Source: Candidatus Magasanikiibacteriota bacterium (GTDB lineage: Bacteria > Patescibacteriota > Patescibacteriia > Magasanikbacterales > GWA2-37-8). Taken from it: a DNA stretch of 64,000 nucleotides. This document shows, piece by piece, positions 3,470 through 48,453 of the stretch (the first letter of the stretch is position 1; every line of letters begins with the position of its first letter). The stretch is taken from NCBI GenBank assembly GCA_041665405.1, contig JBAYIZ010000006.1, positions 407 through 64,406 of the forward strand, in the 5' to 3' direction. The notes beneath the pieces are model-generated. The model was not told where the DNA came from, did no database searches, and saw only the letters and a program-made list of their open reading frames with translations. The position numbers and the translations under genes were made by a program.

Positions 3470-3900
3470 TTTAATTTTTTTAATATGTCCATCGGTTTTT
3501 CTTTGTGCAAATTTCCCAAATAAACACACTTTATTTTTTTAACAAGCACAGCTGGTAATGTTTTTTTAATATCCAACATGATTTCGGTTGGAGCAAACAA
3601 ATACACCGCACTAAATTTTTGTTCACCAGATATTTGTTTCACAAAGTCTTTAACCAAAACTAGAAAATCGCTATGTTTTGATCTCTTCATTTTTTCTATC
3701 TTTGAGCCAGATTCAAACACCAATGATCCACGTCTGCCAAAGTTTTCACGATCAGAATAATGGCTTTTTAATAAAGTGACCTGCCCCGCTTGCGCAATCT
3801 CTCCTTCGCTGGCGATATAAAAATTTGCCGCTTGAGTACCTGATACTACCAATAAGGCACTTTCATTTATAAACTGATGTAATTGTGCTGAAATTTTCAT
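3451..3900 (-). CDS. host-attachment-protein-like (eRF1-fold/Host_attach-like) small protein
   Basis: The 149-aa length and the C-terminal pattern VYLFAPTEIMLDIKKTLPAVLVKKIK...LHKEKPMDILKKL resemble my recollection of the Host_attach family (LVVVAPPRTLGELRK...DLTKHPVDEI). This is from memory only. Confidence 0.4.
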   Translation of the reverse strand: MKISAQLHQFINESALLVVSGTQAANFYIASEGEIAQAGQVTLLKSHYSDRENFGRRGSLVFESGSKIEKMKRSKHSDFLVLVKDFVKQISGEQKFSAVYLFAPTEIMLDIKKTLPAVLVKKIKCVYLGNLHKEKPMDILKKLKKKPLK

Positions 3901-3921
3901 ATAATCAATTCGAGATATGAA

Positions 3922-4905
3922 TTAATTTAATGGTTCAACTAATGGCATATCAGTATTGGCTGGTTTTGGTTTGTATAATTCCGGATCAATTTTGCGGTTA
4001 AAACAAGTACGTTCTGCTTGATGGCTCCAATTCTGGTTGAAGGAATCAAATGGCTTAGGATAGGCCGGAAGAGTGTTGAAATTATTATCACTCACTGTTA
4101 CAAAGTTAGCACACAACTCAAAATTATATTGATTAATAATGCGATATTCATAATCTAGTTTAGTTTGAGGATCGGTCGGTACCACAAAACCAGAGATGCT
4201 GTCGTTTAGCTGTATTACCTCTCCAGGCAATTCAGACTTTTGAGTCCAATAATTTAAAATCTGATTTTGTATTGTCTGCAAATCCTGTATGCGTTGTTCA
4301 TCAAAGCGGCGATTGCGTTGTTCAAATGGAGTGCCTACAACAAAAAATCCGGCCACTACACTTCCCAGCGCCAAAACCAATAAAATCCCTGCCAAAAGTT
4401 TTGGAACACGAGAAATTAATTCTTTGCGTTTCAAATCCCACATATAATATCCAAAGACTGCTCCCGCTACCAACAACACTATCAAAATCTTTAAAAAGAA
4501 ACGGGTAGTAATCTCACCGCTTAAGAAATTATAAACCAGAATAATCAAATCAACAATTATAGTAACTGCGGAAACAAAAAGTGTAAAATACACTAACCAT
4601 TTTCTTAATTTGAATTCGCGCTTTTCTGGATTAGCATATAAATCTTTGGCCAACAACCAGGCTGTTATCAAATATGCCGGCACCGCAATCAATAAAATAG
4701 ATGACGCCACCCGTACCGACTCGGCAATACCAGTATAATAATAATTCAATGCATCAGGAAATAGCGCATTGATATACTGAAGATACAATGTAATAAAACC
4801 AATAACACTCAAATAAAAAGTCAAAATGTTAAATAGGTGCAAAAACACATCTTTTGGTGTACTGCTCGCTTTTACGACACTCGGTTGCATGTTTGAGTTT
4901 TCCAT
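3922..4905 (-). CDS. polytopic membrane protein (DUF5671-like) with a C-terminal extracytoplasmic domain
   Basis: About 6 hydrophobic helices in the first 200 aa are followed by a soluble tail. This architecture is common in CPR genomes. Confidence 0.5.
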   Translation of the reverse strand: MENSNMQPSVVKASSTPKDVFLHLFNILTFYLSVIGFITLYLQYINALFPDALNYYYTGIAESVRVASSILLIAVPAYLITAWLLAKDLYANPEKREFKLRKWLVYFTLFVSAVTIIVDLIILVYNFLSGEITTRFFLKILIVLLVAGAVFGYYMWDLKRKELISRVPKLLAGILLVLALGSVVAGFFVVGTPFEQRNRRFDEQRIQDLQTIQNQILNYWTQKSELPGEVIQLNDSISGFVVPTDPQTKLDYEYRIINQYNFELCANFVTVSDNNFNTLPAYPKPFDSFNQNWSHQAERTCFNRKIDPELYKPKPANTDMPLVEPLN

Positions 4906-5046
4906 AAATTTATTTAATTATATTATAAGTTTATTATACCACAAATATAACTAGCCCACATCATGCTTGTGTGGGATAAATGGCTAACCATTGACAAAAG
5001 ACCGTTTTTATGCTATTATGGCAAGTTAATTTTAATCGTTATAACT

Positions 5047-9554: not shown

Positions 9555-10769
9555 TTAAAAATTTATAAATTCTTTAAACCTATCTTCAAAAATAGCTTGC
9601 CGTGCCTGACGCATAAGCTCCAACATAAAATGCACATTATGGATGGTAGCCAAACGCAAACCAGTAATTTCTTGTGCTACAAATAAATGGTGTAAATAAG
9701 CGCGAGAATAATTTTTGCAAGTTGAACAAGCGCAGTCTTTACTAATTGGAGAAAAATCTTTGATAAACGCGGAGTTTTTTATATTCAAACGACGTTTCGG
9801 GTCCTCGGCAGTCGTAACAAACAACATACCGTGTCGAGCCAAACGAGTTGGTGCTACACAATCAAACATATCCGCACCACCAGCTACCACTTTGAGCAAA
9901 TCCTCTGGATCCAAACCGACACCCATAGTGTATCGTGGCTTATCTTTTGGTAATAATGGAGTAATCCAATCCAAAATATTTTTGGTAGCTTCCATGTTGT
10001 AGCCAATGCTTTCACCGCCAATTGCGATACCATCAAAATCTAAACTGGCAATATATTTAGCCGATTCTTTGCGCAGATCTTCATGATTGGCACCCTGAAT
10101 AATACCAAATAAAAATTGTTTGTATTCTTTCGGCACTGTCATCCCCGACTTGATCGGGGATCTATCATCACTAGATTCCCGCTTCTGCGGGAATGACAAA
10201 CGCTTATGTTCGTCCACACATCTTTTTGCCCAGCGATGAGTGCGATCCATAGCTTCCTTTGTATATTTATAATCTGCATCATCAGGGGTACATTCATCAA
10301 AAGCCATAATAATATCCGCACCAATCTTGTGTTGGCACAAAGTAGCGGACTCTGGTGTAAAACGATGAGTAGAGCCGTCAATATGAGATTGAAATGTCAC
10401 GCCGTCTTCATCTATTTTTACCAATTTACCTTGATCTTTGGTGTCGCTTTTTTCTTTTTGCAATCCTAATGAAAAAACCTGAAAACCACCAGAATCAGTC
10501 AAAATCGCCCGGTCCCAATTCATAAATTTGTGCAAACCACCAGATTGAGCAACCAAATCTTCACCCGGTCTCAAATGCAAATGATAGTTATTGGCCAAGA
10601 TAATTTTTGGGTCCAAAATAGCTAGGTCGTTTTGATCTAGGGTTTTAACTGTGGCCTGTGTGCCAACTGGCATAAAGACCGGAGTTTCAATATCTCCATG
10701 GTCGGTATGCAAAATACCGGCTCTGGCACCAGTTTTTTTATCTTCGTGGATTAGTTCAAAAAATGACAT
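9555..10769 (-). CDS. tgt: tRNA-guanine transglycosylase (queuine tRNA-ribosyltransferase) carrying a 20-aa in-frame repeat-derived insert
   Basis: Tgt hallmarks are present: TPVFMPVGT, LTDSGGFQV, and the zinc site CxCxxC...H (CACSTCKNYSRAYLHH). Confidence 0.93.
   Translation of the reverse strand: MSFFELIHEDKKTGARAGILHTDHGDIETPVFMPVGTQATVKTLDQNDLAILDPKIILANNYHLHLRPGEDLVAQSGGLHKFMNWDRAILTDSGGFQVFSLGLQKEKSDTKDQGKLVKIDEDGVTFQSHIDGSTHRFTPESATLCQHKIGADIIMAFDECTPDDADYKYTKEAMDRTHRWAKRCVDEHKRLSFPQKRESSDDRSPIKSGMTVPKEYKQFLFGIIQGANHEDLRKESAKYIASLDFDGIAIGGESIGYNMEATKNILDWITPLLPKDKPRYTMGVGLDPEDLLKVVAGGADMFDCVAPTRLARHGMLFVTTAEDPKRRLNIKNSAFIKDFSPISKDCACSTCKNYSRAYLHHLFVAQEITGLRLATIHNVHFMLELMRQARQAIFEDRFKEFINF
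10138..10197. repeat. double-hairpin palindromic mini-element (ATTCCCG family) inside tgt
   Basis: Sequence GTCATCCCCGActtgATCGGGGAT...ATTCCCGCttctGCGGGAATGAC is exactly 60 nt. On the minus strand it is translated as SFPQKRESSDDRSPIKSGMT. Confidence 0.8.
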
Positions 10770-11678: not shown

Positions 11679-13715
11679 ATGATAAATTTTGAACAAGAAC
11701 TCAACCCGCAACAGCTGGACGTCGTGAAAAATGGCGACGGGCCTTGTTTGGTTTTAGCTGGGGCGGGATCGGGGAAAACTCGCACTATTACTTATCGGGT
11801 TGCCTATTTGTTGGAACAAGGTGTTGGCCCAGAAAATATTTTGTTGGTAACTTTTACCAATCGAGCGGCGAATGAAATGATTGAACGGGTAAGAAATTTG
11901 ATGAGTGGGGATTCCCGTTTGCACGGGAATGACATGCCGTGGTCAGGAACATTTCACCACATTGCCAATAAAATTTTACGACACTACGCACCACATTTAG
12001 GATACAAAAATAATTTTACTGTTTTGGATTCCGACGACAGCCAGGCGTTGATAAAATTGTGTATCAAAGAATTTAAAACCACCGAAAAATTTCCTTCGGC
12101 GAAAGTTGTGGGCGCAATTATTAGTTTTGCTCGTAATTCTCAAAAAAGTATTGAAGAAGTAATTGAAGATAAATTTAATAGCTGGTGGCACCTGTCTAGA
12201 ACTATTGGCGATGTCAGCTCACGATACGAACAAAAGAAAAAAGAATCCAACGCAATGGATTTTGATGATCTACTAATTAATTTTGCATTGTTATTAAACA
12301 CCCCAGCAATTCAAGAAAAGTTTTCCAATCAATTCAAATATATTTTGGTAGATGAGTATCAAGACACCAACAAACTACAAGCGAATATTATTGATAAATT
12401 AGCCAAAATACACCGTAATTTGTTGGTAGTTGGTGATGACGCCCAAAGTATTTATTCTTTCCGTGCGGCTGATATAAAAAATATTTTAAATTTTGAAGAA
12501 AAATATTCTGATGCGAAAATTTTTCGTTTGGAAATAAATTATCGTTCTCACCAAGAAATTTTGTCTTTGGCCAATAATGTTATCGCCAACAATCGTCATC
12601 AATATCCAAAAAAATTAAAAGCAGTAAAAGAAAATGGCATAAAACCAAATTTATATCCAAAAAATGATCAATCCGACGAAGCGAGTTTTATTGTAAAAAA
12701 AATAAATGAACTGATTGAACAAGGAACTCCAGAACACAAAATCGCTGTGCTGTTTCGTGCCGCTCATCATTCTCAAATGCTCGAAATGGAATTAGCCAAA
12801 GCAGGAATCGCTTATGATTATCGTGGCGGTTTGCGATTTTTTGAACGCGCTCACATCAAAGATGTTTTGAGTTATCTCAGAATATTAAATAATTTATCTG
12901 ACACCTCTGCGTGGTTGCGTATTCTCCAACACGAAGAAGGAATCGGACCGTCGGCTGCCAATAAAATTATTTCTGCCGTGCAAAAACTAGAAAAAATTGA
13001 TGACATAAAAAATCTTGGGGAAGTTTTAGGTGGAAAAACCCAAACCGGTTTTAATAATTTCTTAAAAATTTTTAATGCTCTCTTGGAATCGTATATTCCA
13101 GAAAGCAGCCCTGGTGATTTAATCCAATCCATTATCAGTTCGAATTATAGCGACTATTTGGAAGCAGAATTCATAGATAGTGATGACCGAAAAAAGGATT
13201 TGGAACAAATGGCCACCTTTGCCACCAAACACAAAAATTTATCTGATTTTTTGGCCGAATCTAGTTTGCAAGAGTCGTTTGCCCACCCGACATCCAACCA
13301 AACACAGACAAACAACCAAAAAAGGTTGGTGCTTTCCACTATTCATCAGGCCAAAGGACTGGAGTGGGAAGCGGTTTTTATAATCAATGTAGCCAACGAC
13401 GCCTTTCCCAACAGTCGTGCTTTGGCCGAAAGTGAAGGTCTGGAAGAAGAACGCCGTTTGTTTTATGTCGCTATTACTCGTGCCAAAAAACACTTAATTT
13501 TGACTTATCCAATGTCAAATGAGGGTTGGGGCTCCTCGCTGGGCGGTCCAAGCTTGTTTTTGTCTGAAATTAGCCAAGATTTGATTGATGACCACTCATT
13601 ATTATCCTATAAAAGCACTGTTTTTGATAAAAATGAAGAAATTCAATATATTAACGAAGATGAACCAATAAATATCCAACCTGGTAGTTTTTTGCGCAGT
13701 ATTGATGACTTATAA
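11679..13715 (+). CDS. UvrD/PcrA/Rep-family ATP-dependent DNA helicase
   Basis: Walker A motif (AGAGSGKTRT), motif Ia (TFTNRAANEM), DEYQDT, motif VI (VAITRAKK). Confidence 0.92.
   Translation: MINFEQELNPQQLDVVKNGDGPCLVLAGAGSGKTRTITYRVAYLLEQGVGPENILLVTFTNRAANEMIERVRNLMSGDSRLHGNDMPWSGTFHHIANKILRHYAPHLGYKNNFTVLDSDDSQALIKLCIKEFKTTEKFPSAKVVGAIISFARNSQKSIEEVIEDKFNSWWHLSRTIGDVSSRYEQKKKESNAMDFDDLLINFALLLNTPAIQEKFSNQFKYILVDEYQDTNKLQANIIDKLAKIHRNLLVVGDDAQSIYSFRAADIKNILNFEEKYSDAKIFRLEINYRSHQEILSLANNVIANNRHQYPKKLKAVKENGIKPNLYPKNDQSDEASFIVKKINELIEQGTPEHKIAVLFRAAHHSQMLEMELAKAGIAYDYRGGLRFFERAHIKDVLSYLRILNNLSDTSAWLRILQHEEGIGPSAANKIISAVQKLEKIDDIKNLGEVLGGKTQTGFNNFLKIFNALLESYIPESSPGDLIQSIISSNYSDYLEAEFIDSDDRKKDLEQMATFATKHKNLSDFLAESSLQESFAHPTSNQTQTNNQKRLVLSTIHQAKGLEWEAVFIINVANDAFPNSRALAESEGLEEERRLFYVAITRAKKHLILTYPMSNEGWGSSLGGPSLFLSEISQDLIDDHSLLSYKSTVFDKNEEIQYINEDEPINIQPGSFLRSIDDL
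11911..11933. repeat. ATTCCCG palindromic mini-element inside the helicase gene
   Basis: ATTCCCGTttgcACGGGAATGAC, translated as (G)DSRLHGND between helicase motifs Ia and Ib. Confidence 0.7.
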
Positions 13716-24669: not shown

Positions 24670-25146
24670 ATGAGAGGAAAGCAATCAAAACAACGAGTTA
24701 TTGCTCCGGATCCAAAATATGGAAGCGTATTGGTGGCTAAATTCACCAACTTCTTGATGGAACGAGGCAAGAAATCAGTGGCTCAAGATATTTTTTATTC
24801 TGCTATGGATAAAATCGCTACTGATACAAAGAAAGATCCAATCAAAATTTTTGAAGAGGCAATCAATGTCATCCGCCCACAGGTAGAGGTTCGTTCTCGC
24901 CGTGTTGGTGGTGCCAACTACCAAGTACCACTTCCAGTTCGTGGTGAACGTCAAAATGCTTTGGCTTTCCGCTGGATTATCGGTGCTGCTCGCAACAAAA
25001 AAGGCCAACCAATGTTCCAAAAGCTTGCAACTGTATTAATGGATGCTCAACAAAATACTGGTGATGCCGTAAAGAAACGCGATGACGTACATCGCATGGC
25101 CGAAGCCAACAAGGCTTTTGCGCATTTCGCACGCTTTGCTAAATAA
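24670..25146 (+). CDS. rpsG: 30S ribosomal protein S7
   Basis: ...PDPKYGS...VEVRSRRVGGANYQVP... is canonical S7. Confidence 0.97.
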   Translation: MRGKQSKQRVIAPDPKYGSVLVAKFTNFLMERGKKSVAQDIFYSAMDKIATDTKKDPIKIFEEAINVIRPQVEVRSRRVGGANYQVPLPVRGERQNALAFRWIIGAARNKKGQPMFQKLATVLMDAQQNTGDAVKKRDDVHRMAEANKAFAHFARFAK

Positions 25147-25154
25147 AAATTCCG

Positions 25155-25240
25155 CAAAGGGTAACTTTTTCGCTTTTTTTGCCCGCGAGGGCAAAAGGAT
25201 GAGCCTCGGCTCATAACCCGCTCAAAAGTAACCCTTTGCT
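25155..25240 (+). ncRNA. candidate structured RNA / terminator-embedded repeat, copy 1
   Basis: Outer stem is GCAAAGGGT.../...ACCCTTTGC. It encloses the conserved core TTTTTCGCTTTTTTTGCCCGCGAGGGCAAAAGGATGAGCCTCGGCTCATAACCCGCTCAAAAG. Related copies are at 38645 and 48340. Confidence 0.5.
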
Positions 25241-25266: not shown

Positions 25267-27342
25267 ATGCCTCGTGAATATTCACTAGACAAAACACGTA
25301 ACATTGGTATTGCAGCTCACATCGACGCTGGTAAAACAACCACCACAGAACGTGTGCTTTTTTATACCGGTAAAAAACACAAAATTGGTGAGGTGCACGA
25401 AGGTGCCGCTGAAATGGACTGGATGGAACAAGAAAAAGAACGTGGTATTACTATTACTTCTGCCGCCACTACTTGTTTCTGGAAAGATCACCGCATCAAC
25501 ATCATCGACACTCCTGGACACGTAGACTTTACCGTAGAAGTAGAGCGCTCTTTGCGCGTGCTTGACGGTGCTGTCGCTGTGTTTGATGGATCTCAAGGTG
25601 TAGAACCACAGTCTGAAACTGTGTGGCACCAAGCTGACAAATATAATGTACCTCGCGTTCCTTTTATTAATAAAATGGATAAGTTGGGTGCAGATTTTTA
25701 TATGTGCATGGACTCAATCCATGAGCGTTTATCAAAAAACGCCTACGCCATTCAGTTACCACTTGGCGCTGATAGTACTTTTGAAGGTTTGATTGATGTG
25801 ATCGAAAGCAAAGCTTACCATTTCGAAGGAAAAAATGGTGAAATTGTTGTTGAGATTCCAATTCCAGCCGACATGGTAGAAAAAGTAAAAGAATATCGCA
25901 CAAAGTTGGTAGAAAAAGTTTCAGAGGCTAGTGACGAATTGATGGAAAAGTATTTGAATGGTCAAGAACTATCTGTCGACGAAATCAAAAAAGCTATCCG
26001 CACTTTAACTTTGAAAAATTTATTGTACCCAGTTATCTGTGGTTCTGCTTTGGCAAACATCGGCGTCCAATTTATGTTGGATGCAGTTGTAAGTTATTTG
26101 CCAGCCCCAACAGATTTGCCTCCAACCAAAGGTATTAATCCTGACACTGATGCTGAAGAAGTTCGCAATCCATCTGATGACGAGCCTTTCTCCGCTTTGG
26201 CTTTCAAGATCATGACCGATCCTTTTGTTGGTAAGTTGGTTTTCTTCCGCGTATACTCAGGACATGTTTCTGCTGGCAGTTATTTGCACAACGCTACAAC
26301 TGGCGAACGCAGTCGTTTGGGTCGCATTGTTCGTATGCATGCCAATCACCGTGAAGATGTGACTGACGTTTACTCTGGTGAAATTGCAGCTGCCATCGGT
26401 CTCAAGGATGTCACTACTGGCGATACTCTTTGTGACGAAGAACATCCAATCGTCTTAGAAAAAATTATCTTCCCAGAACCAGTTATTTCTGTGGCTATCG
26501 AACCAAAAACAAAACAGGACCAAGAGCGTATTGGTATGGCTATGCAGAAATTGGCTGAAGAAGACCCAACCTTCCGCATCAAGACTGATGAAGAAACTTT
26601 GCAAACCATTATTTCCGGCATGGGCGAGTTGCATTTGGACATTATCGTGGATCGCATGAAACGCGAGTTCAAGGTAGAAGCCAATGTTGGTGCCCCTCAG
26701 GTTGCCTACAAAGAAACTATCCGCACTACTGCCGAAGCTGAAGGAAAATACATCAAACAGTCTGGTGGTAAGGGTCAATTTGGCCATTGTTATCTCACTG
26801 TTGAGCCCCAAGAAGCTGGCAAAGGATTCGAGTTTGTCGATGAAATCAAAGGCGGAACAATTCCTCGTGAATTTATCCCTGCCATTGAAAAAGGTGTTAA
26901 AGAATCCCTAACTCGCGGTATTCAAGCTGGTTACCCGGTAGTAGACATCAAAGTAACTGTTACTGATGGCTCATACCATGAGGTGGATTCCTCTGAAATG
27001 GCTTTCAAAATGGCCGGATCGATGGCTTTCCAGACAGCTTGTAAAAAGGCCAACCCGGTGATTATGGAGCCTATTATGAAAGTCGAGGTAGTTACCCCAG
27101 AACAATATATGGGTGACTGCATCGGCGACTTAAACAGTAAACGTGGCCAAATACAAGAAATGTTTGACCGTGGCCAGATGAAGGTTGTGAAGGCAATGGT
27201 GCCTCTTGCGTCCATGTTTGGCTATGTCACCTCTTTGCGCTCTATGTCACAAGGTCGCGCTAGTTCCTCTATGGAATTCGATCACTATGCAGATGTTCCA
27301 GGTAATGTGGCTCAAAACATTGTCGCTGGAAAACAGAAATAA
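25267..27342 (+). CDS. fusA: elongation factor G
   Basis: G-domain motifs [18 protein letters not shown]. 691 aa. Confidence 0.97.
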
Positions 27343-33950: not shown

Positions 33951-33987
33951 AAAAAAAACGCCGCATTTATTCTTGCGGCGTTTTTTT
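33951..33987. terminator. bidirectional intrinsic terminator
   Basis: AAAAAAAACGCCGCA-N8-TGCGGCGTTTTTTT lies between convergent genes. Confidence 0.8.
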
Positions 33988-36447: not shown

Positions 36448-37842
36448 TTAGATATTATTGATATATAAACGCTGTCTTATTAATTCTAGTTCTTGTTTTA
36501 GTTTTAAATCATTATCTATTTCTTTGGTAATTTTTTCGTTGGCATGCATCGCTGTGGTGTGATCGCGTCCGCCCAGCTCATCGCCAATGGAAGGGAAAGA
36601 CATTTTAAGATCATTACGCAAAATATACATAATAATCTGGCGAGGATAAGAGAGCTTCTTTTCTCGGCTTTTACCACAAACATTTTCGGTGGAAACATTG
36701 AAAAAGGTGCAAACAGTCTCTATGGTCTGTTGTGATGTGACTGAACGTCTAGCCGAAGCAGAATCAAAACTAGAAAGAATTGATTTTACTGATTCGGCTG
36801 TCGGGGCCATATTTTTTAATTGATGATAAGCAATAATTTTATTTAGGGCGCCTTCAAGCTCACGAATGTTGCTCTGAACAATAGTAGCAACTGTATTTAG
36901 GGTTTTGTCGTCCAAAACAAAATTCTTTTCTTGGCACTTTTTGCCCAAAATAGCGACACGTGTTTCAAAATCAGGGGCAGAAACATCCACAATCATTCCC
37001 CACTCGAAGCGAGATTTGAGGCGATCCTCAAGGGCAGGGATGGCTTTTGGTGGGCGGTCAGAAGTTAAAATTACCTGCTTGTTTGCCTGGTGGAGCTCGT
37101 TAAAAGTATGAAAAAACGATTCTTGGCTGGCATCTTTGCCAGCGATGAACTGAATATCATCAATTAACAAAGCGTCGATAGTACGATAGCGGTTTTGGAA
37201 GTCTCTCGCTCCACCACTACGCAAAGAAGTAATAAAATCGTTGGTAAATTTCTCAGCACTAACATACAAGATATTGGTTTGAGGGTTTTTTTTCAACAAT
37301 TCATTGCCAACCGCCTGTAAAAGATGGGTTTTCCCCAAACCTACACCACCGTAGATAAACAGTGGATTGTAGGCCTCACCAGGACGGTCTGCCACTGCCT
37401 TGGCGGCGGTGAAAGCCAATTCGGAGCCTTTGCCAACCACAAAACTATCAAAATTGTATTTTGGGTTAATGGTAAATCCATGAGAAGCGACAGATTGGTG
37501 ACTAGTTTGTTGAGAGTATGAAGGTGTTTTTTCGTTTTCATGAGATACCGACGGGGAAGGAGGGGTGTTTATTGGTTGTTCCACAACATTTTTGATATTT
37601 TCGATCTTGTATTCCATCCTTCTAATAGGAAGGGCGGTGACCCTCTCTAAAGATTGGATGATTTGGTGGTGGTGTTTTTTTTCAATCCACGCCTGATTAA
37701 AGGTGTTTGGGACGCAGACAATAACATGGCCTTCTTGAAAACTAACAATACCAGTATTTTTGAACCAGGTGTTAAAATTCGCTTTGGAAATGGTTAATTC
37801 TAATTCAGATAAAACAGCCTGCCAAATTTCATTATTAGTCAT
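36448..37842 (-). CDS. dnaA: chromosomal replication initiator DnaA
   Basis: AAA+ Walker A GGVGLGKTHL, a sensor region, and the C-terminal DnaA signature (GGRDHTTAMHA). Confidence 0.96.
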   Translation of the reverse strand: MTNNEIWQAVLSELELTISKANFNTWFKNTGIVSFQEGHVIVCVPNTFNQAWIEKKHHHQIIQSLERVTALPIRRMEYKIENIKNVVEQPINTPPSPSVSHENEKTPSYSQQTSHQSVASHGFTINPKYNFDSFVVGKGSELAFTAAKAVADRPGEAYNPLFIYGGVGLGKTHLLQAVGNELLKKNPQTNILYVSAEKFTNDFITSLRSGGARDFQNRYRTIDALLIDDIQFIAGKDASQESFFHTFNELHQANKQVILTSDRPPKAIPALEDRLKSRFEWGMIVDVSAPDFETRVAILGKKCQEKNFVLDDKTLNTVATIVQSNIRELEGALNKIIAYHQLKNMAPTAESVKSILSSFDSASARRSVTSQQTIETVCTFFNVSTENVCGKSREKKLSYPRQIIMYILRNDLKMSFPSIGDELGGRDHTTAMHANEKITKEIDNDLKLKQELELIRQRLYINNI

Positions 37843-38017
37843 AGATTGATAGTTTTATAAAACTTTTATGTTATTTTAGCACAGAAACACATCTATTAAA
37901 ACGTCGGAAATTAGCTAAAAGTGCAAAATATGTGGATAAACTGGGGATACTGTGGATTGTTGACTAAAAGCCGTTTATATGGTAATATATTCAACATAAT
38001 ACATTAAATAAAAAGGT
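37843..38017. other. oriC candidate, part 2 / dnaA promoter region with DnaA boxes
   Basis: Perfect TGTGGATAA at 37931-37939 and TGTGGATTG at 37951-37959. Confidence 0.6.
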
Positions 38018-38197
38018 ATGGCAACTAAACGAACTTATCAACCAAGTAAAAAACATCGTGCAAAAGCACACGGATTCATGGAAAGAATGTCCACAAAGAA
38101 TGGACGGACAGTACTTTCTAGACGTCGTGCCAAGGGGCGCAAGAAGCTAACAGTGTCAGATGAAAAATCTGGAAAATTGTTAAGAAAAGCCAAATAA
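38018..38197 (+). CDS. rpmH: 50S ribosomal protein L34 with a C-terminal extension
   Basis: My own translation: [59 protein letters not shown] (59 aa). It is below the track cutoff. A hairpin terminator follows at 38202-38227. Confidence 0.9.
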
Positions 38198-38245
38198 TCT
38201 TAAACCCCCGATTGAATCGGGGTTTTTATTTGGTATAATATTGTT

Positions 38246-38641
38246 ATGTATAGAAAAGAAAACCATTTGACCAAGGTGCGAGATTTCAATCTCGTTTTAA
38301 AACAAGGATATTGGATAAATGATCTGTTTTTTAGTTTAAAAGTATTAGACTTAGCCAAAAAAGAGGCTTATTTTCCACCCAAAGAAGATAAGGATAAGTT
38401 CAAAAAACAGCTTAAGTTAGCGGTGAATGTTGGGTTAAAGGTGTCTAAAAGTGCTGTTGTGCGCAATCGGGCAAAAAGGCAGGTTGTGGAGGTGTTGAGG
38501 GCGATGATGGCCAAAGATGAAATATTGGAAGGGTATTATTTGTTTTTTGTGGCGAAGCCGAATATCAAGGAGAAAAGTTTTGCTGAGATAAGCGATGAAG
38601 TGAAACTATTATTGCAAAAGGCAAACGTGCTAAAGAGGTAA
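38246..38641 (+). CDS. rnpA: ribonuclease P protein component
   Basis: Position after rpmH. The RNR motif context is present (VVRNRAKRQVVEVLR). Confidence 0.85.
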   Translation: MYRKENHLTKVRDFNLVLKQGYWINDLFFSLKVLDLAKKEAYFPPKEDKDKFKKQLKLAVNVGLKVSKSAVVRNRAKRQVVEVLRAMMAKDEILEGYYLFFVAKPNIKEKSFAEISDEVKLLLQKANVLKR

Positions 38642-38644
38642 TTT

Positions 38645-38739
38645 AAAAAACTTTTATTTTATTTCGCTTTTTTTGCCCGCGAGGGCAAAAGGATGAAGCC
38701 GCGGCTTCATAACCCGCTCAATTAAAATAAAAGTTTTTT
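38645..38739 (+). ncRNA. candidate structured RNA / terminator-embedded repeat, copy 2
   Basis: A 17-bp outer stem (AAAAAACTTTTATTTTA/TAAAATAAAAGTTTTTT) encloses the core TTTCGCTTTTTTTGCCCGCGAGGGCAAAAGGATGAAGCCGCGGCTTCATAACCCGCTCAA. Confidence 0.5.
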
Positions 38740-38744
38740 AAATT

Positions 38745-39020
38745 ATGCCTAAAAACCTTCTTTATTACATTAAACAAGCAACTATATTTTTGGGAATGCC
38801 GATTGTTTTTTTGATTTGGGTTTATCAAAAAACATTTTCGCCGGATCATGGGCCGTTGAAAAGATTTTTTCCTTATGGGTATTGTCGGTTTTATCCTAGT
38901 TGTAGTGAATATGGAAAACAATCTATAAAAAAACACGGCCTGTTTGTTGGAACAATCAAGGCCGGGTGGAGATTGCTAAGATGTAATCCATGGAATAAAG
39001 GGGGGATGGATTTGCCGTGA
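38745..39020 (+). CDS. yidD: membrane protein insertion efficiency factor YidD
   Basis: YQKTFSP...CRFYPSCSEYGKQSIKKHG...G...RLLRCNPW is the canonical YidD pattern. Confidence 0.9.
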   Translation: MPKNLLYYIKQATIFLGMPIVFLIWVYQKTFSPDHGPLKRFFPYGYCRFYPSCSEYGKQSIKKHGLFVGTIKAGWRLLRCNPWNKGGMDLP

Positions 39021-44707: not shown

Positions 44708-44731
44708 GATTCCCGCTTTCGCGGGAATGAC
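44708..44731. repeat. ATTCCCG palindromic mini-element, intergenic
   Basis: GATTCCCGCtttcGCGGGAATGAC, about 20 nt from the hppA stop. Confidence 0.75.
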
Positions 44732-48241: not shown

Positions 48242-48312
48242 GGTACCGTTGCCAAGCAGTAAGGCAGAGCTCTGCAAAAGCTCTATGCGTGGGTGCAATT
48301 CCCACCGGTACC
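48242..48312 (+). tRNA. tRNA-Cys (anticodon GCA)
   Basis: Acceptor stem GGTACCG/CGGTACC, anticodon stem GAGCT/AGCTC with loop CU-GCA-AA, T-arm GTGGG-TGCAATT-CCCAC. A TTGACT-16-TATTAT promoter lies upstream. Confidence 0.85.
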
Positions 48313-48339
48313 TCGAAATAGCAGTAGTGCTGTAGAACA

Positions 48340-48437
48340 AACATCCCAGACAATGACTTTTTCGCTTTTTTCGACCGCGAGGTCGAAAGGATGAGCCTCG
48401 GCTCATAACCCGCTCAAAAGTAATTGTCTGGGATGTT
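48340..48437 (+). ncRNA. candidate structured RNA / terminator-embedded repeat, copy 3
   Basis: A 15-bp perfect outer stem (AACATCCCAGACAAT/ATTGTCTGGGATGTT) is followed by a T7 run. It encloses the core TTTTTCGCTTTTTTCGACCGCGAGGTCGAAAGGATGAGCCTCGGCTCATAACCCGCTCAAAAG. Confidence 0.55.
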
Positions 48438-48453
48438 TTTTTGTACCATAAAA

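Follow-up and report, generated by a model that had tools for sequence, protein, structure and literature searches.

A branched palindromic repeat with copy-specific arms, probably a mobile DNA element, in Candidatus Magasanikbacteria

Three copies of the repeat in a 64-kb stretch

The DNA analysed here is a 64-kb stretch of contig JBAYIZ010000006.1 from a Candidatus Magasanikiibacteriota bacterium (referred to as the window herein), and our subject is a palindromic repeat that it carries three times, always on the + strand. Copy 1 lies in the spacer between rpsG and fusA, copy 2 between rnpA and yidD, and copy 3 past tRNA-Cys, with polA downstream. In each of them a core of 54-56 nt, made up of two hairpins, sits within a long stem whose sequence is specific to that copy. 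The copies and their neighbours are as follows.

24670-25146, +, rpsG (ribosomal protein S7; Pfam Ribosomal_S7, E 3e-59), upstream of copy 1
25154-25239, +, copy 1, whole palindrome in the rpsG-fusA spacer (left arm 25154-25169, core 25170-25223, right arm 25224-25239; covariance model score 98.8 bits)
25176-25197, +, hairpin 1 of copy 1 (stem UUUUUGCCC/GGGCAAAAG, loop GCGA, GNRA-type)
25199-25214, +, hairpin 2 of copy 1 (stem AUGAGC/GCUCAU, loop CUCG), then the unpaired joiner AACCC at 25215-25219
25267-27342, +, fusA (elongation factor EF-G; Pfam GTP_EFTU, EFG_IV and related domains), downstream of copy 1
38246-38641, +, rnpA (RNase P protein; Pfam Ribonuclease_P), upstream of copy 2
38639-38745, +, copy 2, whole palindrome between rnpA and yidD (left arm 38639-38663, core 38664-38719, right arm 38720-38745)
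38745-39020, +, yidD (Pfam YidD), downstream of copy 2
48242-48314, +, tRNA-Cys (GCA), upstream of copy 3, which starts 24 nt past it
48339-48442, +, copy 3, palindrome at 48339-48438 (left arm 48339-48361, core 48362-48415, right arm 48416-48438) and T-run at 48439-48442

The initial annotation had seen one core three times on the same strand, and this observation is real. The 14-mer CATAACCCGCTCAA, which the copies share, has three exact matches in the window compared to 0.27 expected with two mismatches allowed, and an unfiltered search of the 64 kb with a covariance model of the family returned exactly these three copies (84-99 bits), the rest being noise. Each copy was predicted to fold as a long stem topped by two hairpins (fold z-scores between -6.6 and -9.4), and about equal folding was predicted for the reverse strand. 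When the window was scanned with Rfam at the gathering threshold, only two tRNAs passed and no family was found for the repeat, in line with the earlier remark that it was not recognised as any named riboswitch or ribozyme class.

Distribution, structure and covariation of the family

We scanned one genome per species with a pattern in which the putatively unpaired segments were fixed and both hairpins were left free (TCGCTTTTTT N10-22 AAGG N12-24 AACCCGCTC). The scan yielded 102 DNA stretches, six of them chance matches in unrelated bacteria and ∼96 real copies. The hosts are ∼15 metagenome-assembled genomes (MAGs) of Candidatus Magasanikbacteria, one Tagabacteria MAG and one labelled 'Patescibacteria group', and the richest genomes have ∼17-19 copy-bearing loci. 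Nearly all copies are found in Candidatus Magasanikbacteria. The origin in the Candidate Phyla Radiation (CPR) that had been suggested earlier holds. A covariance model built from the 102 aligned copies was run over the collected loci, ∼770 kb of DNA selected for containing a copy (labels such as L016 refer to these loci), and raised the count to 112 copies, which fall on 68 unique sites. Among them is a diverged type B subfamily that reads TCGCTTTCCTCG..GCGA..CTCAGGGATG and coexists with type A; the joiners, described as invariant from the window copies, are thus not so across the family. The copies are dispersed singly, not in arrays, stand in both orientations and are found in independent assemblies from many projects. 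The window genome is absent from the reference genomes, and its nearest relative among them shows ∼82-92% identity over aligned stretches. A contig search with the S7 protein found only the source contig of the window (ENA ERZ27249449 k141_170678) and one identical fragment, and a scan of viral contigs with the family pattern gave no matches. A literature search for a prior description of the repeat in CPR, Patescibacteria or Magasanikbacteria returned nothing relevant.

Some of the loci call for comment in their own right. Several third-party annotation (TPA) MAGs titled 'uncultured Gammaproteobacteria' (L005, L010, L014, L015, L023 and others; CAZXEV01, CAYXJO01, CAYZHG01, CAZHYJ01) share 70-92% nucleotide identity and synteny with the window and carry the same repeat, so these titles look mislabelled. 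Two copies are decayed: L093:186-256 (+) is truncated past hairpin 2 and has no enclosing arms, and L048:6981-7056 (-) has a broken hairpin 2. At L012:2233-2430 (-), two copies with separate arms follow each other in tandem at a distance of ∼50 nt and point the same way.

A whole unit is a Y/T-shaped hairpin of ∼90-130 nt with no coding capacity of its own. At its centre is the asymmetric conserved part of 54-56 nt, which forms two side-by-side hairpins as single-stranded DNA or RNA. The centre is flanked by semi-conserved, lineage-specific inner inverted repeats of 10-16 bp, and these by arms that are unique to each copy. Beyond the core the inner repeats can be extended; genome CAZHYJ uses GTTTGRTAATTTTT/AAAAAATAYCAAAC, and copies of one genome share such extended repeats before diverging, over 14-16 bp in CAZHYJ and over 20 bp of arm between L055 and L072. 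In the window the enclosing stems (P1 and what lies outside it) had been put at about 9-12, 17 and 15 bp. Their uniqueness to each copy stands, and so does the three-way-junction architecture, while the lengths become ∼16, ∼25 and ∼23 bp for copies 1, 2 and 3 once the inner P1 is counted. The unpaired nucleotides are conserved in the family, as are the GNRA-type loop and the UNCG/CUYG-type loops.

Pairing in all three helices is kept by double changes. In the alignment of 102 copies, 93.7% of cells pair compared to 80.9% in shuffles, and 20 of 30 pairs have changed on both sides; no shuffle or slid register comes close, and none of 500 shuffles reaches any of the covariation measures. The compensatory hairpin changes noted in three copies hold across the family. 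Hairpin 1 is 99% paired, with both-sided changes in six of its eight pairs and 21 stem variants, and there are only two mismatches in ∼790 pairs, with no G·T. Its pairing and its GCGA loop are as first drawn; its length is not, since the U-run pairs with the A-run and extends the stem. The two U·G pairs at its base in type A are C-G in type B. Hairpin 2 is 96.9% paired, five of its seven pairs change on both sides, and its mismatches comprise 10 G·T and 9 A·C. All nine pairs of the inner P1 covary. In P1 and the outer arms, read on the supposed sense strand, there are 29 A·C against 6 G·T, many of them at one conserved mismatch position.

The top of P1 has UCGC facing GCUC, which gives two G-C pairs and a UC/UC internal loop. 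A pseudoknot between this UCGC and the GCGA loop had been suggested, and it did not survive the larger alignment: no both-sided change was found, and variants with TGGC..GCCA, GAGC or TCAC keep the GCGA loop. Instead, the 5′ tetramer covaries with the 3′ GCTC, and in the variants TGGC..GCCA or GAGC..GCTC the UC/UC loop becomes Watson-Crick paired. The sole clearly unpaired conserved joiner is AACCC. Three further candidates were considered. Pairing of GG(39,40) with CC across hairpin 2 is invariant and hence uninformative, and to judge from type B the two G residues pair with the 5′ pyrimidine run instead. A mini open reading frame (ORF; AAGGAUG AGC CUC GGC UCA UAA) was rejected because its frame is not kept among cores of 54, 55 and 56 nt and the ribosome-binding-site spacing is too short. 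A promoter within the core was also rejected, no acceptable -35/-10 pair being seen by eye on either strand.

Flipping of the centre and gain or loss of whole hairpins

The contexts of the 68 unique sites relative to neighbouring genes are:

tandem genes, repeat in sense: 23
tandem genes, repeat in antisense: 12
between convergent genes: 18
between divergent genes: 6
within an ORF call: 2 (the confirmed in-frame ksgA copy; the other was judged a spurious ORF call)
single neighbouring gene called: 7

When orthologous sites were compared, orientation was kept in 55 of 71 pairs and the core was flipped in the other 16. L045 has the same arms as L048:4583 and L050:1645 and differs from them only in the direction of the asymmetric centre; over evolutionary time the centre flips between its arms. 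Copy 1 is lineage-specific and lies inside the str operon at a place where relatives hold an independent or flipped copy. In the rpsG-fusA spacers of L075 and L090 the repeat is flipped relative to copy 1 and the arms are unrelated, while in L105, a more distant relative, the spacer is 17 nt long and has no hairpin. A metagenome search with S7 for further rpsG-fusA spacers found only distant relatives (≤75% identity), none of them with the repeat.

Hairpins are gained or lost as whole units between related genomes. We compared seven filled sites with short orthologous empty sites (eight comparisons), and in every empty site the whole 115-130 nt unit was gone, arms included; no bare stem was left at any of the seven short empty sites aligned. 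At other syntenic spots a plain terminator with an unrelated stem takes the same place (window 33952-33987 and L096:6888; L061/L070 and L101).

One case lies inside a gene. In L043 and L054 the repeat lies in frame and in sense within the rRNA dimethylase gene ksgA (Pfam RrnaAD), where it is read as ..SCSLFSRASAKGCDCGRITRSQ.., and the orthologs in L069, L094 and L057 are shorter by exactly 96 nt. The frame is open through the repeat in both genomes, and ksgA of L043 encodes 381 amino acids compared to 289 in orthologs without the repeat. In this frame the common hairpin-2 stem ATGAGC would bring a TGA stop, which is missing from the stems of these copies (ATGCGAC, ATGGTCC). The empty coding sequence has no hairpin and does not contain the 21-bp arms of the ksgA copy; therefore the arms arrived together with the repeat or arose along with it. 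In L043 the right arm is, in its outermost part, homologous to host codons, and an inverted copy of this part forms the left arm, which means that the palindrome was extended into its flank. ksgA, in two genomes, is the one coding-gene site seen in the family, and a protein-database search for further in-frame insertions of core-encoded peptides gave no matches. The L043 gene (ORF 3799-4944) also holds a second in-frame insert at 3975-4215 (-), ∼70 residues long, containing two GTCATTCTGAGC..GAAGAATC units read as CHSEP.. and CHSERS..; with two different repeats in one essential gene, this genome tolerates both within ksgA.

At two sites the repeat is kept in the same orientation in several genomes. 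Between rnpA and yidD it is found in six, namely the window, L016, L017, L033 and L044 (all type A) and L096:514 (type B), and at tRNA-Cys in five (the window, L011, L038, L025:1339 and L066). The insertion at copy 2 is old and conserved and takes up the rnpA-yidD spacer; its palindrome begins at base 1 of the rnpA stop codon and ends at base 1 of the yidD start codon. In the five type A genomes the palindrome ends within 0-3 nt of these two codons. The folded mRNA would bring stop and start codons together, and translational coupling may survive the insert. Farther upstream, dnaA (-, 36448-37842) faces rnpA (+) across a 400-nt gap (window 36448-38246), and the minimum of cumulative GC skew falls at ∼32-36 kb of the window. 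The dnaA-rnpA region is probably the replication origin region, and copy 2 lies ∼400 nt to the right of it.

Mobile DNA, RNA and terminators: weighing the readings

[quoted passage not shown] It is presumably non-autonomous, since it lacks coding capacity, and is unlikely to be a dedicated sense-strand regulatory RNA. The moving unit would be the whole hairpin, recognised by its shape and its conserved junction nucleotides through an enzyme supplied in trans. An insertion preference between C and T is suggested by the flanks: C stands at position -1 in 53 of 97 copies and T at +1 in 52 of 97, while C directly precedes only 11 of the 55 plain perfect hairpins of this DNA. Either a duplication of 2 bp or insertion at C|T with no duplication could underlie this signal. 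Hairpin-templated copying may be what makes the arms diverge and sometimes reach into the flank, and such copying would keep them perfectly complementary without selection at the RNA level.

A more specific mechanism is conceivable though doubtful, namely that the repeat is a structure-defined hairpin transposon. The Y/T hairpin would be excised and reinserted as single-stranded DNA at C|T by an enzyme that reads the junction and not the ends, with the arms growing in place and the centre flipping. The enzyme might be encoded by the host or supplied in trans, for example a nuclease of the HUH/Y1 type or another structure-specific nuclease. If so, a conserved centre with free ends would be the opposite of the MITE build, and the element would naturally give rise to new terminators and to in-frame peptide inserts in the minimal genomes of CPR bacteria. 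Likewise, if the centre is a recognition module for an enzyme, the family would point to an uncharacterised DNA-processing activity in these organisms.

In transcripts, a resident stem followed by a T-run likely behaves as an intrinsic terminator or mRNA-end hairpin. Copy 3 is a terminator-shaped hairpin past tRNA-Cys that carries the repeat, its 23-bp arm being followed by T7, as judged from sequence. Copy 2, with a T-run inside its arm just ahead of the yidD ATG, would perhaps act likewise, and copy 1, which is followed by TCCATTTT inside the str operon, may simply be tolerated, as would other copies within operons. Counts of T-runs and A-runs by gene context do not discriminate between these settings because the flanks are AT-rich everywhere. 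An RNA-level role in termination or 3′-end protection is possible as a by-product of the repeat's presence.

A different reading is that the repeat is a functional cis-acting structured RNA, a three-way-junction module at the tip of terminator or intercistronic hairpins that binds a protein or determines the 3′ ends and the stability of RNAs, and whose P1 is free to covary since only its pairing matters. Strong covariation in P1 and both hairpins speaks for it, as do the conserved unpaired nucleotides and loops, the fixed orientation with compensatory changes in place across genus-level divergence at the rnpA-yidD and tRNA-Cys sites, and the replacement of U·G by C-G at the base of hairpin 1, which is consistent with the + strand. 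Most copies also lie 3′ of a co-directional gene, many with T-runs. Yet the repeat is antisense at 12 of 35 tandem sites, its core is flipped in more than a fifth of ortholog pairs, one copy is translated in frame within ksgA, and the ∼17-19 loci of the richest MAGs adjoin unrelated genes. The mismatches point the same way, because in an RNA under selection G·U should be accepted and A·C kept out: hairpin 1 has no G·T, in hairpin 2 G·T is no commoner than A·C, and A·C exceeds G·T nearly fivefold in the outer stems on the supposed sense strand. Rfam gave no match even with E relaxed to 10. One of the two readings put forward in the initial annotation was a structured RNA whose P1 covaries freely, and with copies in both orientations and varied contexts we consider it unlikely. 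The other, an element inserting into the loops of pre-existing terminator hairpins so that the outer stems are the host's own terminators, came closer in proposing a mobile element, and many outer stems are indeed built like local plain terminators (A-tract, 5-11 bp GC-rich stem, T-tract), copies stand at gene 3′ ends or between convergent genes, and some syntenic spots have a plain terminator in another genome. The insertion into terminators does not fit, however: the empty ksgA sequence lacks the arms of its filled counterpart, all seven short empty sites aligned without any hairpin, and where a plain hairpin holds the same spot its stem is unrelated. The arms pass into the inner repeats with no leftover loop nucleotides, C at -1 is far more frequent beside the repeat than beside plain hairpins, and a subset of copies inside operons has GC-rich arms (GTAG..CTAC type) with no A/T tracts. 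Homing into terminators is accordingly quite improbable. That the repeat is a known ribozyme or riboswitch, a CRISPR repeat, a product of chance or an assembly artefact is scarcely credible. At E up to 10, Rfam gave only noise near copy 1, the best match, at 20.5 bits compared to a gathering score of 39 (E 0.022), being to CRISPR-DR57 on hairpin 1, minus strand. No known family reaches threshold, the single dispersed copies form no arrays, the independent assemblies argue against an artefact, and the 14-mer count, the shuffles and the covariance model lie far beyond chance.

Several observations weigh against the mobile-element reading, to which we return here. No clean target-site duplication was established, TC|..|TC flanks being found in 21 of 97 copies. 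No partner enzyme and no autonomous counterpart turned up in the DNA searched: a tblastn search of the ∼770 kb with two Y1 transposases (IS200 and IS608 TnpA) as queries, a weak test, gave no Y1 transposase. All presence/absence comparisons are between species with flanks ∼70-90% identical, no recent insertion was seen, and the comparisons of filled with empty sites do not separate gain from loss. There is a sense majority at tandem sites (23 versus 12), although by our own binomial estimate it is not significant (p about 0.09). Lastly, the rnpA-yidD copies are conserved in a manner that does not fit simple selfish DNA. The unpaired core nucleotides are fully conserved between orthologous sites, and at rnpA-yidD they are identical among the five type A copies (the joiners of L096:514 differ), and the arms and both hairpins show compensatory changes among the window, L016, L017, L033 and L044, with hairpin 1 reading TGCCC/GGGCA or TGGCC/GGCCA and the hairpin 2 stem reading ATGAGC, ATGAGGC, ATGAAGC or ATGAGCC. 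Homogenisation between copies is not the cause, because the rnpA-yidD orthologs are more like one another than like the other copies of their own genomes. This looks like purifying selection per locus, which is unexpected for a dead selfish insert unless there is templated conversion or a host function. Two explanations remain: resident copies are under selection, for a host function or for continued mobility, or hairpin-templated repair keeps the pairing mechanically.

Similar behaviour is known from other palindromic repeats. MITEs act as terminators, invert and insert in frame, and inversion has been reported for Correia elements in particular (PMC10969869). Like the MITEs Correia and SPRITE, the present family is small, non-coding, multi-copy and mostly intergenic, and the inverted repeats of those MITEs fold as a long hairpin in transcripts that can act as a terminator or RNase target, a similar way of working. 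With 90-130 nt and 112 copies at 68 sites it is also within the usual bounds for MITEs (under about 800 bp, dispersed). The build, however, is reversed. MITEs have conserved terminal inverted repeats, whereas here the inner 10-16 bp are conserved and the palindrome ends differ in every copy, around a centre that is itself a branched two-hairpin structure with compensatory variation; there is also no clear target-site duplication, and no parent insertion sequence was found in the ∼770 kb by the same weak search. RPEs are likewise palindromic repeats of a reduced genome that occur between genes and in frame in housekeeping genes, where they are read through as an extra peptide, as the open ksgA frames of two genomes would be. 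Unlike this family, RPEs share sequence over their whole length and are known from dozens of coding-gene sites (PMC10969869) compared to one here, and their host phylum is unrelated; the likeness drawn here is one of behaviour.

A lead on a mobiliser comes from REP, BIME and REPIN sequences and their RAYT enzymes. TnpAREP, the REP-associated Y1 nuclease, cleaves single-stranded DNA at C|T beside extragenic REP hairpins and requires a stem mismatch (PMC3333891). Here, the conserved P1 mismatch and the UC/UC loop would be the counterparts, and a palindrome typically has C at its left border and T at its right; we treat the parallel as a lead only. REP and REPIN sequences have a conserved 5′ GTAG, conserved stems and hundreds of copies per genome, whereas only a minority of arms begin with GTAG, GTAA or GTTG here, the arms are unique to each copy and copies number in the tens per genome. 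By tblastn, again a weak test, the ∼770 kb showed no RAYT gene, and no split or half-site pair enclosing a gene was found among the covariance-model matches.

A further likeness, by analogy only, is to the inverted terminal repeats of adeno-associated virus, a parvovirus. These are T-shaped terminal hairpins with flip and flop forms, which serve as Rep-processed telomeres of a linear single-stranded DNA virus. They share with our repeat a long stem capped by two small side-by-side hairpins and an asymmetric centre that occurs in both orientations; by contrast, our repeat is embedded in a bacterial chromosome, with no Rep, no Rep-binding repeat and no viral context. Because its conserved branched centre and free arms reverse the usual build, we place the family among the palindromic repeats as a variant of its own, not as a new RNA class and not within a named family.

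Hardly any repeat families are on record for CPR/Patescibacteria, which have tiny genomes believed to be poor in mobile elements. The present family makes up a sizeable share of the long hairpins near genes, with 112 core-bearing hairpins compared to 55 plain perfect ones in the ∼770 kb, which had been chosen for containing a copy. The repeat should be masked or annotated, since it lies in housekeeping operons and in ksgA, where it will confuse predictions of terminators, small RNAs and riboswitches. It also illustrates that strong covariation alone is no proof of RNA function, since palindromic DNA may stay paired through templated repair or selection on its single-stranded form.

A second, unrelated repeat was found in the same DNA. 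This one forms a simple REP-like hairpin, GTCATTCCCGCGAAAGCGGGAAT(GAC), closed by a GAAA loop, and no match to it is expected by chance. It occurs in the window at 10175-10197 (-), 11911-11933 (-) and 44709-44731 (-), and elsewhere at L040:6450, L061:2612, L070:4683, L088:488, L090:7877 and L095:1109. At some syntenic spots it stands where another genome has the branched palindrome.

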